This document shows positions 896 to 11,204 of a DNA stretch of 13,815 nt, piece by piece. Where the stretch lies: the UHGV virus genome UHGV-1810643; one strand, written 5' to 3'. Source of the stretch: a virus. The position numbers and the translations under genes are program-made. A model generated the notes under the pieces. The model made no database searches, was not told the origin of the DNA, and saw only the letters and a list, made by a program, of their open reading frames with translations. Within the stretch, counting starts at the first letter, position 1; each line of letters opens with the position of its first letter.

Positions 896-2776
896 TTAAT
901 ACTCCGTCACGTTTTCCTGTCGCCACGCCTCGTCATATTCCGATTTCGGCATATTGGCGATGTAGCTATATGGCGATCCTGATTCAAGTTGCAGGAACTG
1001 GTGCGATTGCTCGTCAAGGAACAACGGGACACCACCTTCCCAACCTTCGCCGTTTCGTTGTTTTTCAAGCATCAAAACAGATGCCGGAGACGCCAGTACC
1101 TGTTCGTCCTTCTCTGACATCTTTTCACCACTCTGAACTCTCTGTAACGCTCTCTCGCGAGCCTTGTTACGCCAGATGATGAAAAGGTTGTCTGTCAGGT
1201 CTGTTATCGCTCCAGAGCCTTTTACGTCCATTTTCCCGGTTGGTTTTTCTTCGCTGTCTCCTTTTCGCGAGTGAGTAACGAGAATGACGTGGGAGTTTGT
1301 TTTGTTTTTGAAGTCGCAAATCGAGTCAACAAACGCCTTCTGCCCGTTATAGTCATCGTCGCCTATGCCACATTTCATCAGGCTGTCGATGATGAATAAC
1401 TGGATCCCGTATCGGCGGCGAGCGTAGTCGAATATTTCGATCAGCCTGTCGGCTTTCGCCGTTCCGGTCAGGCCAAACACCCAAAGTCTTTCGTCATAAA
1501 ATTTAAATGCAGAGTCAATTTCCAGCACTGGCGGCATCTTGCAGCACGTTGCCTGACGGGTAAGGCGCTTAAGGAGAATACCAGGCTTCAGCTCAAGTGA
1601 CGCGATGCACGTCTTCACACCCTGACGCATTGCCTCAAGTGCCATATGCCCGACAACCTCCGTTTTTCCGTGACCGTTCACACCATTGACCAGCGTCAAC
1701 TCGGCCTCACGGAACTGGAATTTATCTGCCAGAGATTCCCACGGTGGATTAAACAGATACTGCTGCTTGCCGTAGAAAGCGTTGATAGTGTCCTGGTAAA
1801 ACTCTCGCGCGCTGTAGAGTTCTTCAGGATCAAAGTAGGATGCCGTGCCGATGTACTGCCAGATTGCATCCTCGGTAACACCGTTCATCAGGCATTCGTT
1901 GATGTCTTTGTACGGCAGAGTAACAAGACGGCAACGATGTTCACCGAGTCGGCTTGCGATTTCCCTTGCGGCTTCACGACCAACATCATCAACGTCCATC
2001 GAGATGAATATTTCCTCAAACCTGTCGAGGTTGTGATACTCAAACTCAATCCACTGTTGCTTAGCGCCTTTCCCTCCACCAAACGGTACGGATAACGCCG
2101 AGATGCCGTATTGCGCATAGCTCATACAATCAATTTCGCCTTCGCAAAGTACAACCGCCCTCACGCCAGCGTCCAGAGCCTGCCATCCGAACAGACAAGG
2201 TTCGCAATCACCTTCTGCCATAATGACTTTCTTCCCGTCCGGGCGCTCAGTGCTGATTCGCTTGACCTGCAACAACTCACCATCGCGTTTGTACGGAATC
2301 ACCAGAGCATCCAGTTCCCGCTCTCCATTCCACACCTTGCCGCTGACAACCTCGTAGCGCTTTACGATTTCTGGCGATATGCCACGCGATTGCAGGTACT
2401 CAAGATGGGATTCTGTTCTGGTAACGTAGCGGGCGATTTTCTTGCGATCAGGTCTGGAGAATTTTTTCTCACGTCTGGCATCGAAATGGTGATCGTCATC
2501 CTTGATACCGAGAAATGCTTTCGCTTCCTGCATAGCCTGATGCAGGTTAATTCCACGACATGCCATCCACAAATCAAGCATGTCACCGCCGTCTCCCTCA
2601 GCGAAATCAGCCCATTTTTTCTTGCCGCTAAGGTTGACCTTAAGGCTGTTTCCCTTGTCACCGTTGATGTTACCGGCAACCCACTCATGCCCCTCTTTCT
2701 TGCCGTTTGGCAACAGGTGCGGAGCCACCCTGTCAACCTGCGCCCAAAGCAGGTCGCTAAGTTCACTTGGCGTCAT
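896..2776 (-). CDS. Bifunctional primase-helicase (626 aa): TOPRIM primase domain plus C-terminal Walker A (DnaB/T7 gp4-like) helicase
   Basis: ORF track; TOPRIM-like motif CEGEIDCMS; Walker A GVNGHGKTE; occupies the position of lambda P. Confidence 0.88.
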   Translation of the reverse strand: MTPSELSDLLWAQVDRVAPHLLPNGKKEGHEWVAGNINGDKGNSLKVNLSGKKKWADFAEGDGGDMLDLWMACRGINLHQAMQEAKAFLGIKDDDHHFDARREKKFSRPDRKKIARYVTRTESHLEYLQSRGISPEIVKRYEVVSGKVWNGERELDALVIPYKRDGELLQVKRISTERPDGKKVIMAEGDCEPCLFGWQALDAGVRAVVLCEGEIDCMSYAQYGISALSVPFGGGKGAKQQWIEFEYHNLDRFEEIFISMDVDDVGREAAREIASRLGEHRCRLVTLPYKDINECLMNGVTEDAIWQYIGTASYFDPEELYSAREFYQDTINAFYGKQQYLFNPPWESLADKFQFREAELTLVNGVNGHGKTEVVGHMALEAMRQGVKTCIASLELKPGILLKRLTRQATCCKMPPVLEIDSAFKFYDERLWVFGLTGTAKADRLIEIFDYARRRYGIQLFIIDSLMKCGIGDDDYNGQKAFVDSICDFKNKTNSHVILVTHSRKGDSEEKPTGKMDVKGSGAITDLTDNLFIIWRNKARERALQRVQSGEKMSEKDEQVLASPASVLMLEKQRNGEGWEGGVPLFLDEQSHQFLQLESGSPYSYIANMPKSEYDEAWRQENVTEY

Positions 2777-8602: not shown

Positions 8603-8739
8603 CCATTAATCACCAGATGCTTCGTGCTGCACAGAACAAAGCAGTAATAGCCAGATTTATTGGTGATTCCAAAATGTGGCTTGAAGCAAATAAAGCGATG
8701 AAATCAGCGATCAACATTCCGTGGTATCGCAGGAAATGA
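8587..8739 (+). CDS. Kil-like small protein (50 aa)
   Basis: ATG at 8587 with GGAGG SD; overlaps cIII end as kil does in lambda/P22; below ORF-track cutoff; assigned by position only. Confidence 0.5.
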   Translation: MRNEIAINHQMLRAAQNKAVIARFIGDSKMWLEANKAMKSAINIPWYRRK

Positions 8740-8814
8740 GTTTTACAGATAACTGGTCAGACGAAGAATTCATTCGTCAGATGAAAGATTTAATCGGTAA
8801 CGAAGGAGATATGC

Positions 8815-8985
8815 ATGTCACTTGCAACCACAGTGAAGGAGAGCAAGTTACAGAGACGCATGTACACTCAGCAGGCGTTAATGTATCGCCAGAAGGGAGA
8901 TCGTGAAGGTGTTCGCGTATTTTTAAATGCGGCAAAGACTGAAGTATTAAATCAGCGTTATTTCCTTGTGCCATGTCCATTCTGA
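8815..8985 (+). CDS. Arf-like small basic protein (56 aa) immediately upstream of erf
   Basis: ATG at 8815 with AGGAG 6 nt upstream; ends 10 nt before erf; assigned by position; alternative ORF 8736..8906 overlaps in another frame. Confidence 0.4.
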   Translation: MSLATTVKESKLQRRMYTQQALMYRQKGDREGVRVFLNAAKTEVLNQRYFLVPCPF

Positions 8986-8995
8986 GAACAAACAT

Positions 8996-9601
8996 ATGAG
9001 CAAAGAATTTTACGCAAGACTGGCAGCCATTCAGGAGAATCTGAACGCGCCAAAGAATCAGTACAACTCATTCGGTAAATATAAATACAGAAGCTGCGAA
9101 GACATTCTTGAAGGCGTTAAGCCGTTACTGAATGGCCTGTTTTTATCAATCAGCGATGAAGTTGTGTTGATTGGTGATCGGTATTACGTGAAAGCCACGG
9201 CAACTATTACCGATGGCGAAAACAGTCATACGGCAACCGCACTAGCACGAGAGGAAGAAAGCAAGAAAGGAATGGATTCTGCACAAGTTACGGGCGCTAC
9301 AAGCTCTTATGCACGCAAGTATTGCCTCAATGGTTTGTTCGGCATTGATGATGCGAAAGATGCAGATACAGACGAGCATAAACATCAGCAGAGCGCAGCA
9401 GCAAAGCAATCAAAACCATCACCTACACCTGAACAGGTTCTAAAAGCATTCACTGACGCAGCATTGCAGAAAAACACCGTGGAAGAGCTTAAACAGGCGT
9501 TCGCCAAAGCGTGGAAGATGCTCGAAGGCACACCGGAGCAGCAAAAAGCGCAGGACGTTTACAACATCAGACGAGACGAATTAGAAGGAGCGGCTGCTTA
9601 A
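8996..9601 (+). CDS. erf: Erf single-strand annealing recombinase (201 aa)
   Basis: Protein from MSKEFYARLAAIQENLNAPKNQYNSFGKYKYRSCEDILEGVKPLL matches P22 Erf as recalled; start at internal ATG 8996 rather than ORF-track 8966. Confidence 0.9.
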   Translation: MSKEFYARLAAIQENLNAPKNQYNSFGKYKYRSCEDILEGVKPLLNGLFLSISDEVVLIGDRYYVKATATITDGENSHTATALAREEESKKGMDSAQVTGATSSYARKYCLNGLFGIDDAKDADTDEHKHQQSAAAKQSKPSPTPEQVLKAFTDAALQKNTVEELKQAFAKAWKMLEGTPEQQKAQDVYNIRRDELEGAAA

Positions 9602-9984
9602 TGGCACATTCGATTACTGTAAGACTAAACAAGCCCGTAAGAGAGTTTCAGGCCGGGGAAAATATCGGATTCAACATCCGTGCTGGCGTTCAGTATTACG
9701 ATCGCCAGACAAAAAAGAAAGAATGGACAAACTACAGCGCCGTTGTATTTGCCAAGCCGGGAGCGCAAGCGGATTACTACCGTAGTGTTCTTGTTGAAGG
9801 TGGCATTGTAGAAATTACCGGAGAAAACATCAGGGTTGATGTTTATCAGGGGCAAAATGGTCAATCAATCACTCTTGAATTACTGAATGCAAAGATTGGA
9901 TTTGCAGCTTCAGGAAATGGCCCGCAGCAGCAAAGTAGTAATCATCAAAATCATCCTGAATACGACGATTCAATTCCCTTCTAA
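9601..9984 (+). CDS. Short SSB-like protein (127 aa) with C-terminal acidic DDSIPF tail
   Basis: ATG at 9601 overlapping the erf stop; OB-fold-like core; C-terminus PEYDDSIPF resembles the E. coli SSB tail DDDIPF. Confidence 0.7.
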   Translation: MAHSITVRLNKPVREFQAGENIGFNIRAGVQYYDRQTKKKEWTNYSAVVFAKPGAQADYYRSVLVEGGIVEITGENIRVDVYQGQNGQSITLELLNAKIGFAASGNGPQQQSSNHQNHPEYDDSIPF

Positions 9985-10007
9985 ATTAGCAAAATAAGGA
10001 TTCCATT

Positions 10008-10304
10008 ATGCCAGCGCCTCTGTATGGTGCGGACGACGCGCGCCGCTGTTCCGGCAATTCCGTATCGGAGGTGCTGGATAAATTCAGAAAAAACTACGAT
10101 CGGATAATGTCGCTACCGCAGGAAACGAAAGAGGAAAAGGAATTTCGCCACTGTATATGGCTTGCAGAGAAAGAAGAACGCGAGCGAATTTACCAGACAT
10201 CAATCCGACCATTCCGCAAAGCCACATATACCAACTTCCCTGAATATATCGAACCGCGCCTGCGTAATTACCGCTCACGCTATGGCGCTATCAGTAATGA
10301 CTGA
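10008..10304 (+). CDS. Abc2-like anti-RecBCD protein (98 aa), tentative
   Basis: ORF track; AAGGA SD; size and position after erf consistent with P22 abc2; identity from memory only. Confidence 0.5.
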
Positions 10305-10314
10305 GGAATTTACC

Positions 10315-10482
10315 ATGAGAGGACTTGCATACAATCCCGGCATTCTTCCGGCAGAAATGATTATTCGCCAACGCGTAAAGCCAATGCCATCGAGAGAGGA
10401 ATTGCTTAAGAGAAATTCTTTTCCATCAGTGAATCAAAACAAATATCTGAATGCGATGTGGCGCAAAGGAGGCAACCAGTGA
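10315..10482 (+). CDS. Hypothetical 55-aa protein
   Basis: ATG at 10315 with GAGGAA SD 7 nt upstream; stop overlaps the next gene's GTG start (GTGA). Confidence 0.35.
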
Positions 10483-11204
10483 GCAAGATTGATTATCAAA
10501 AGCTTCGTGAAATCGCTGAAAAAACAAAAATTGCTGGTGAAGCACCTGTAATGCCTTTCGATCAGCGAATTAATGCGCTTAACGATTTTATGAAGCACTT
10601 TTCGCCAGATATCGCGCTGGCATTGTTGGATGAACGGGAAAGAAACCAGCAATACATCAAACGCCGCGACCAGGAGAACGAGGATATTGCGCTTACGGTT
10701 GGGAGGCTGCGCGTTGAGCTGGAAGGCAAAGACAGCAAAATAGCCAATCTTACCGCCGAACGCGATGCTCTTCGTGAAGGTGAGATGGGCGACGCTAGGC
10801 ATAGCAACACACGGGCCGCAGCTGATATCTACTTCCAACTGGTCGAGGAATGCGAAATTCCTGCTGGCGGATCTCTGGTCGAGTACGTTGACGATATGCG
10901 CGAGAAGCTGGAAGCCGCAGAGAAGCGCATTGCAGAACTGGAAGCACGGGAAATAAAACCAGCCAAAGGCGAAGTTCTTGTCGTTGTTTCTGGTTTTACT
11001 GGTTGCGGAAAAAGCGCCATCGCCGGGGAAATAGAAATCGCGATGAAGGCTATTGGTGTACCGGTTCAGTGGACTAATGGCGATGTGGAAAAGCGCATGA
11101 CAGGAGCTGACTGGCTGACAGCGATTGAGATGTACAAACCAACAGTGCGCATCGTGGAAGTTAATGTGCCACGCGCCGCAGGCATTCGCATCAAAGGAGA
11201 GTGA
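10479..11204 (+). CDS. Ea22-like coiled-coil protein (241 aa) with divergent C-terminal region containing a Walker A-like motif
   Basis: GTG at 10479 with AGGAGG 6 nt upstream; [27 protein letters not shown] and terminal GIRIKGE match lambda Ea22 as recalled; body differs. Confidence 0.65.

Follow-up and report, generated by a model that had tools for sequence, protein, structure and literature searches.

What does the gene that directly follows the annealing-protein gene erf in a lambdoid recombination module encode, and what is its SSB-like tail for? We analyzed a stretch of viral DNA of 13,815 nucleotides from UHGV virus genome UHGV-1810643 (henceforth the window), in which a reading frame of 127 aa at 9601-9984 follows erf. 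An earlier note on this DNA had described the product as a short relative of the host single-stranded DNA (ssDNA)-binding protein (SSB) and had proposed two roles for it, either as a bona fide SSB partner for Erf or as a tail mimic that competes for the clients of host SSB. We consider it likely that the protein is a genuine phage SSB which partners Erf in the recombination module. Its architecture is the standard one in three parts, with an oligonucleotide/oligosaccharide-binding (OB) fold core predicted to bind DNA, an unusually short flexible linker and an acidic docking tip ending in IPF. The family is already known by prediction under the name SSB-1b, assigned in 2025, and the observation is correct but ordinary. 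It is one further case of the established rule that the annealing proteins of phages are accompanied by an SSB bearing a tip of the type of the bacterial C-terminal docking motif (SSB-Ct), and it opens no new question. What is added here is the conserved SSB-Ct tip of the family, including exact copies of the host tip, the conserved positions of the DNA-stacking aromatics, the pairing of the family with several annealing-protein types, a frameshift that conceals the tip in the reference sequence of HK97, and the size of an annotation gap.

The gene and its OB-fold core

Translation of 9601-9984 on the + strand gives MAHSITVRL...NHPEYDDSIPF* (127 aa plus stop), and the translation, the match to PHROG 44 and the homologues all mark it as the gene for an SSB-1b-type ssDNA-binding protein of the HK97 gp40 family. 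The start on the erf stop codon, reported in the earlier note, was confirmed: the erf stop TAA (9599-9601) and the ATG (9601-9603) have one base in common, giving TAATG. A Shine-Dalgarno sequence, AGGAG, is located within the end of erf at 9586-9590, 10 nt upstream of the ATG at 9601; this ribosome-binding site and the stop/start overlap at 9599-9603 together occupy 9586-9603 of the + strand. Their arrangement would indicate that erf and ssb are translationally coupled. The start-on-stop arrangement is also present in mEp043, HK97, Yersinia phage 06.16-1 and Vibrio phage 1.178.O. A scan of 8700-10500 for promoters and terminators returned nothing above shuffled expectation.

The ratio of nonsynonymous to synonymous substitution rates (dN/dS) was calculated as a pooled pairwise value over 92 distinct nucleotide versions of the gene from related loci. 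It was 0.089 for the core codons 1-103, 0.235 for the linker codons 104-118, the least constrained stretch of the gene, and 0.051 for the final five codons. The reading frame at 9601-9984 is a real gene under purifying selection. Two other candidate frames were rejected. The GTG at 9511, from which a program-made list had drawn a longer frame, is not the true start because the homologues all start with MAHSIT, MAHTIT or a close variant. An antisense frame at 9625-9864 was dismissed as spurious, given the strong purifying selection on the + frame.

The proteins of HK106, mEp043, HK544, HK446 and HK542 are 95-98% identical to the window SSB, and HK97 Gp40 is 91% identical to it (127 aa, E 4e-79). 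Of 5426 complete E. coli genomes, 579 carry the gene at 95-100% identity. Among the E. coli matches listed, every copy adjoins an 'ERF family protein' and is itself called 'hypothetical protein' in RefSeq. A family model for SSB-1b would close this common annotation gap, which affects ~11% of complete E. coli genomes and is overlooked by Pfam and NCBIfam.

The structure of the protein was predicted with AlphaFold2 from an alignment of 55 family members. Residues 1-105 were modeled with confidence, mostly with a predicted local distance difference test (pLDDT) score >90, and form an OB barrel of the SSB type. The core (aa 1-103; 9601-9909, + strand) follows the order beta1-beta1'-beta2-beta3-helix(55-63)-beta4-beta5-beta6 and has the topology of SSB, with a five-stranded barrel, a helix between beta3 and beta4, and long hairpins. 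The OB-like core proposed in the earlier note, which had named the lack of an OB fold on structure prediction as grounds for giving up the idea, thus has a confident OB fold in the model. In a Foldseek search against the PDB, the matches with E<1e-3 were bacterial SSB, PriB or mitochondrial SSB without exception (27/27), and the viral fold matches in BFVD that carried names were all SSBs. The AlphaFold2 prediction is that of a monomer, and the oligomeric state of the protein is something we infer, as is its binding of ssDNA.

Comparison of sequence profiles led to the same family. PHROG 44, 'single strand DNA binding protein', matches the window protein at 2.8e-27. The alignment to SSB families that the earlier note had proposed as a check was made with hhalign, in which a close family alignment matched E. 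coli SSB with 90.5% probability and a more diverse one with 96% probability (E 4e-9); the E. coli sequence was verified against PDB 1eqq/4mz9. In this comparison Y32, W42, F50 and Y82 fall on W40, W54, F60 and W88 of E. coli SSB, the four aromatics that stack on DNA. F50 is invariant in the family, conservation is at least 90% for Y32 and W42, and either Y or F occupies position 82. Several basic residues are also invariant or nearly so. The window protein shares less than 20% identity with E. coli SSB (PF00436, TIGR00621; PDB 1eyg, 1eqq, 4mz9) and lies below every curated threshold; sequence searches of the PDB gave only E 0.087 and E 0.45 to SSBs. The distance is bridged by other members, since 10 of 121 diverse members match the Pfam SSB family PF00436 themselves, the best at 2e-6. 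When 1.84 billion cluster representatives were scanned exhaustively with HMMER, just 216 had E<=1e-3; the SSB-1b family is small and isolated in sequence. PHROG, fold, profile comparison and bridging members agree that the window protein is a highly diverged SSB of the bacterial type.

Linker and C-terminal tip

Beyond the core, residues 107-127 are disordered in the AlphaFold2 model. The short linker (aa 104-118; 9910-9954, + strand) is rich in Q, N and S, with pLDDT <50 for residues 107-121 and a rounded dN/dS of 0.24. It is followed by the tip PEYDDSIPF (9955-9981, + strand; rounded dN/dS 0.05), whose family conservation identifies it as the counterpart of the bacterial SSB-Ct docking motif MDFDDDIPF. 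The protein therefore resembles E. coli SSB in its OB topology and in the aromatics at the four stacking positions, and likewise in having a disordered linker with an acidic IPF tip at its end. It is much shorter than host SSB, as had been noted (127 vs 178 aa), because its linker has only ~15 residues, compared with ~55 in the E. coli protein. The linker accounts for almost the whole difference, the OB core being of full size.

The pattern aromatic-D-D-x-I-P-F is kept across the family. After clustering at 90%, 82 of 107 full-length representatives end in x-Pro-Phe/Tyr after acidic residues and 4 further ones have IPF plus a few additional residues, while linker and tip together range from 21 to 83 residues in length and the linker itself from ~15 to ~80. 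After clustering at 50%, an acidic x-P-F/Y/W end is present in 65 of 120 non-fragment representatives, many of them with exactly FDDDIPF, and close variants of the tip in 12 more. The resemblance of PEYDDSIPF to the host tip, on which the earlier note had relied, is thus a property of the family. In the passages of the 2025 survey of lambdoid recombination modules that were searched (PMC12315714), no mention of a tail on SSB-1b was found.

Two members carry the tip of E. coli SSB residue for residue. The homologue of Yersinia phage vB_YenM_06.16-1 (L002 3001-3465) has the C-terminal end EEPPMDFDDDIPF, and a Leminorella grimontii prophage copy (P0106) ends in PPMDFDDDIPF; both join a diverged SSB-1b core to a C-terminal end of 11-13 residues identical to that of E. 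coli SSB. Such exact host tips on SSB-1b cores suggest tail exchange with host or canonical ssb genes, or else very strong convergence. When the window protein was compared by BLASTP with the canonical SSB of HK75, the tail was the sole shared stretch. From these sequence comparisons, the tail is best read as a retained standard SSB-Ct module rather than as a novel mimic.

The canonical phage SSBs of this position, SSB-1 (HK75 gp31 and the SSBs of Sf6 and ES18), resemble the window protein in module position and in the logic of the tip, HK75 gp31 having NEPPMDFDDDIPF. They differ in that HK75 gp31 is a close copy of host SSB, and its candidacy as a member of SSB-1b was rejected on comparison in favor of canonical SSB-1. 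In HK75 gp31 (L173 3910-4416, minus strand) the NEPPMDFDDDIPF is followed by 15 further residues (APVTLPFPRHAIHAI). The Phe is not C-terminal and, therefore, the docking of clients should be altered or blocked. According to a bioRxiv 2026 preprint on P2 OLD, Gp31 and Gp33, the non-P22-like proteins encoded by the recombination loci of HK75 and HK446, are uncharacterised.

The tip is hidden in the member that gave the family its name. HK97 gene 40 in the reference (NC_002167; L089 1787-1810, minus strand) has one additional C five codons before the stop and reads GATTCCAAT where the window (9964-9984) and mEp043 read GATTCAAT. The product therefore ends in ...DDSNPILI and lacks the IPF tip, which is intact in the window protein; removal of the C restores ...DSIPF*. 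This frameshift was found in one of the 92 distinct versions of the gene, and the additional C is either an error in the reference or a mutation of the laboratory strain.

The penultimate Pro of the tip is also replaced in several prophage copies, by Leu in P0005, P0006 and P0078 (..SILF), by Thr in P0051 (..SITF), by Gln in L124 (..SIQF) and by His in L117 (..DIHF). This is the position of the classical ssb-113 defect of E. coli. The substitutions may reflect prophage decay, or the tip may have been inactivated under selection. If the HK97 frameshift is counted with these replacements, prophages have lost the tip repeatedly, and one might even speculate that such losses were favored because the tip is toxic or because host defences sense phage SSBs.

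Pairing with annealing proteins and the proposed role of the SSB

The upstream gene, erf (8996-9601, + strand), encodes a true Erf-family single-strand annealing protein, as the earlier note had assumed: it matches Pfam PF04404 ERF at 4e-44 and its product, the presumed partner, is 74% identical to P22 Erf. In the loci examined, a member of the SSB-1b family always lies immediately downstream of a single-strand annealing protein gene. In HK97, mEp043, Vibrio K phages and marine contigs this neighbor is Erf. The Yersinia phage has an annealing protein whose N-terminal domain is of another kind, and Vibrio phage 1.178.O has RecT together with a restriction-endonuclease-like exonuclease; in Klebsiella phage KLB22 a more distant relative follows a 'recombinase'. 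Overlapping stop and start codons are common among these loci. A survey of 52 non-redundant pairs of SSB and upstream gene confirmed the linkage and found the IPF tip beside several types of annealing protein.

Downstream of the SSB gene is abc2 (10008-10304, + strand; Pfam Anti-RecBCD_p2 1.9e-60, PHROG 656), an anti-RecBCD gene and the third member of the recombination module. The order erf - SSB gene - abc2 is the same in the window, HK97 and mEp043, and HK97 gp40 thus shares its slot with the window gene. The slot between erf and abc2 holds SSB-1, SSB-1b, SSB-2 or Abc1 across lambdoid phages. The relevant passages of PMC12315714 (Genome Research 2025) classify the recombination modules of 325 lambdoid phages, give HK97 gp40 the name 'SSB-1b' and describe its module type as anti-RecBCD, SSB and annealing protein. 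They also state that the AlphaFold 3 fold of SSB-1b resembles bacterial SSB, that its identity to canonical phage SSB is <=15%, and that none of these phage SSBs has been studied experimentally.

By analogy, the SSB of HK620 (HkaK, 'SSB-2') appears to be the best functional model for the window protein. It binds ssDNA and stimulates annealing and recombineering by Sak4; when its last six residues (NDYPPF) are removed, Sak4 recombineering falls tenfold and Sak4 is no longer loaded on SSB-coated ssDNA (PMC5928155, Hutinet et al. 2018). The two proteins share the slot between an annealing-protein gene and abc2, and the ...NDYPPF tip resembles SSB-Ct. They differ in sequence family, that of HK620 being described in those passages of PMC12315714 as not homologous to bacterial SSB, and in partner, which is the RecA-like ATPase Sak4 in HK620 and Erf in the window. 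In the view now accepted, SSB C-terminal tails determine annealing-protein function; phage SSBs are often in one operon with annealing proteins, and co-expression of cognate SSBs improves the efficiency and portability of recombineering (PMC12054835, PNAS 2025). With respect to the two roles first suggested for the window protein, the partnership with Erf gains from the slot after the annealing gene and from the HK620 precedent, while the retained SSB architecture describes the tail better than mimicry does.

We propose that the SSB is expressed from the early-left (pL) operon, coupled in translation to Erf, and that it would coat ssDNA exposed at phage DNA ends or replication forks. In the erf-SSB-abc2 module this ssDNA would presumably be made by Abc2-modified RecBCD. 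The exposed tip could then serve as a handle that recruits Erf to the coated strand, where Erf would displace the SSB and anneal the strand to its complement. Erf would accordingly be the expected ligand of the tip, and host SSB-binding enzymes may be recruited through it likewise. As a predicted SSB of 127 aa whose tip is compatible with the host and whose natural neighbor is Erf, the protein is also a compact candidate for Erf-based recombineering cassettes.

Several observations weigh against a dedicated SSB partner of this kind. At E<=1, no Pfam family matches the window protein, and with the NCBIfam model TIGR00621 'ssb' the score is 15.2 bits (E 0.02), well short of the cutoff at 53.95. 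His55 of E. coli SSB, which is involved in tetramerisation, corresponds to Thr43 in the hhalign alignment, and the tip is DDSIPF rather than DDDIPF, with Ser at the third Asp of the host. One marine clade has no tip and ends in ...NFNQPQR or ...PDDDWV. On the side of the partner, the C-terminal module of Erf (~aa 146-201; 9431-9598, + strand), which is common to annealing proteins with other N-terminal domains and is presumably a partner-interaction domain, matched the SSB-Ct-binding C-terminal domain of lambda Red-beta with a probability of only 0.3% in hhalign. Finally, P22 has no SSB and carries the unrelated Abc1 in the slot. Since P22 Erf works with no SSB of the phage's own, Erf does not in principle require one. 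Presumably host SSB can serve Erf instead, and the phage protein would enhance the reaction without being necessary for it.

The P22 case would equally suit a general phage SSB that serves replication or the protection of ssDNA and stands after erf by an accident of module shuffling. Bacterial-type SSBs are generalists, and the replication module of the window, which is of the primase/helicase type, could use one. We nevertheless regard this as unlikely. The linkage across distant phages is to the annealing-protein gene, often through overlapping stop and start codons, and not to the replication module; moreover, the study of 325 lambdoid phages places SSB genes within recombination modules in the passages cited above (PMC12315714).

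The strong conservation of a host-like tip, which some members carry as an exact copy of the last 11 residues of the host, raises the alternative that the tail is a decoy and DNA binding secondary. Many SSB-Ct-like tips would then titrate or redirect host SSB clients, including ExoI, RecJ, RecQ, RecO, PriA and Pol III chi, so that phage ends are protected or host pathways disabled. The retention of the tip beside several unrelated annealing-protein types is as expected for a host target, and a fellow member of the module, Abc2, does manipulate a host enzyme. A pure decoy, however, needs no OB core held at a dN/dS of 0.09 with four conserved stacking aromatics; the architecture is simply that of ordinary SSBs, and the HK620 tail acts positively on the phage's own annealing protein. 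A tail that functions as a decoy in place of a partnership is thus quite improbable, although the two roles are not mutually exclusive. A combination of them, in which SSB-1b is a 'privatising' SSB and both partner and competitor, can be envisaged but is also improbable in our estimation: the short linker would keep four host-type tips near the DNA-bound core, so that intermediates go preferentially to Erf while host clients (ExoI, RecJ, RecQ, RecFOR, PriA) are captured or excluded.

A genuine SSB that partners Erf remains our preferred explanation over an analogue of P22 Abc1 that works with Abc2 on RecBCD rather than on DNA, for which there is very little chance: P22 abc1 (L091 2118-2402, 94 aa) is likewise flanked by erf and abc2, exactly in this slot, and its start also lies on the stop codon of erf, but Abc1 is unrelated in sequence and has no OB-like features, and the SSB-1b family also occurs in modules without Abc2 (Vibrio, marine contigs).

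Neighbouring genes and the Erf C-terminal module

The window corresponds to the early region of a phage or prophage of the lambdoid group, with the leftward (pL) operon on the + strand. This strand carries cI, rexA, rexB, N, small genes, erf, the SSB gene, abc2, an Ead/Ea22 gene, xis and int; on the minus strand are a primase/helicase gene, a lambda-like O, cII and cro. Stretches that span from the O gene to int, together about half of the window, are 98% identical to lambda; the recombination region matches mEp043, Sf101 and vB_EcoP-720R6 instead. The window is thus a mosaic of lambda-type stretches and an Erf-SSB-Abc2 recombination module of the HK97/mEp043 type. A 626-aa primase/helicase (896-2776, minus strand) replaces lambda P. 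Just 5' of erf there is a reading frame of 56 aa (8815-8985), at the position of P22 arf and of HK75 gp33; no similarity was found when it was compared with HK75 gp33, which has been reported as a trigger of P2 OLD (bioRxiv 2026 preprint).

The Erf C-terminal module of ~55 aa is a shuffled unit with the consensus ...LK.FT..A......L...F...W..L.G....Q.KA.DVY.IR..EL. In Erwinia phage EhrS_59 (L090 2492-2665) a Sak4-like 'ATP-binding protein' carries it as a fusion, and it occurs on non-Erf N-terminal domains in the Yersinia phage (L002 2825-2998) and in HK75 (L173 4420-4590, minus strand). We considered whether the tip of the SSB co-varies with this module and found no strict rule in a small sample. 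In two marine contigs (L084 3455-4513 and L086 2029-3070) an Erf without the module adjoins a tail-less SSB, which hints at co-variation, but these are two cases and other pairings contradict them: IPF tips stand beside module-less annealing proteins, namely RecT with its exonuclease, the Klebsiella 'recombinase' and one Yersinia-type protein.

When the module by itself was used to search for homologues, only 16 fragments were retrieved, all nearly identical. In a profile search of the PDB its only match was over 23 residues, to the receptor-binding coiled coil of colicins E2, E3 and E9 (E 8e-4). The last helix of the module (9530-9598 of the window, Erf aa ~179-201), QQKAQDVYNIRRDEL, resembles residues 338-360 of these colicins, QERQAKAVQVYNSRKSELDA; the similarity of such a short helix may be due to chance.

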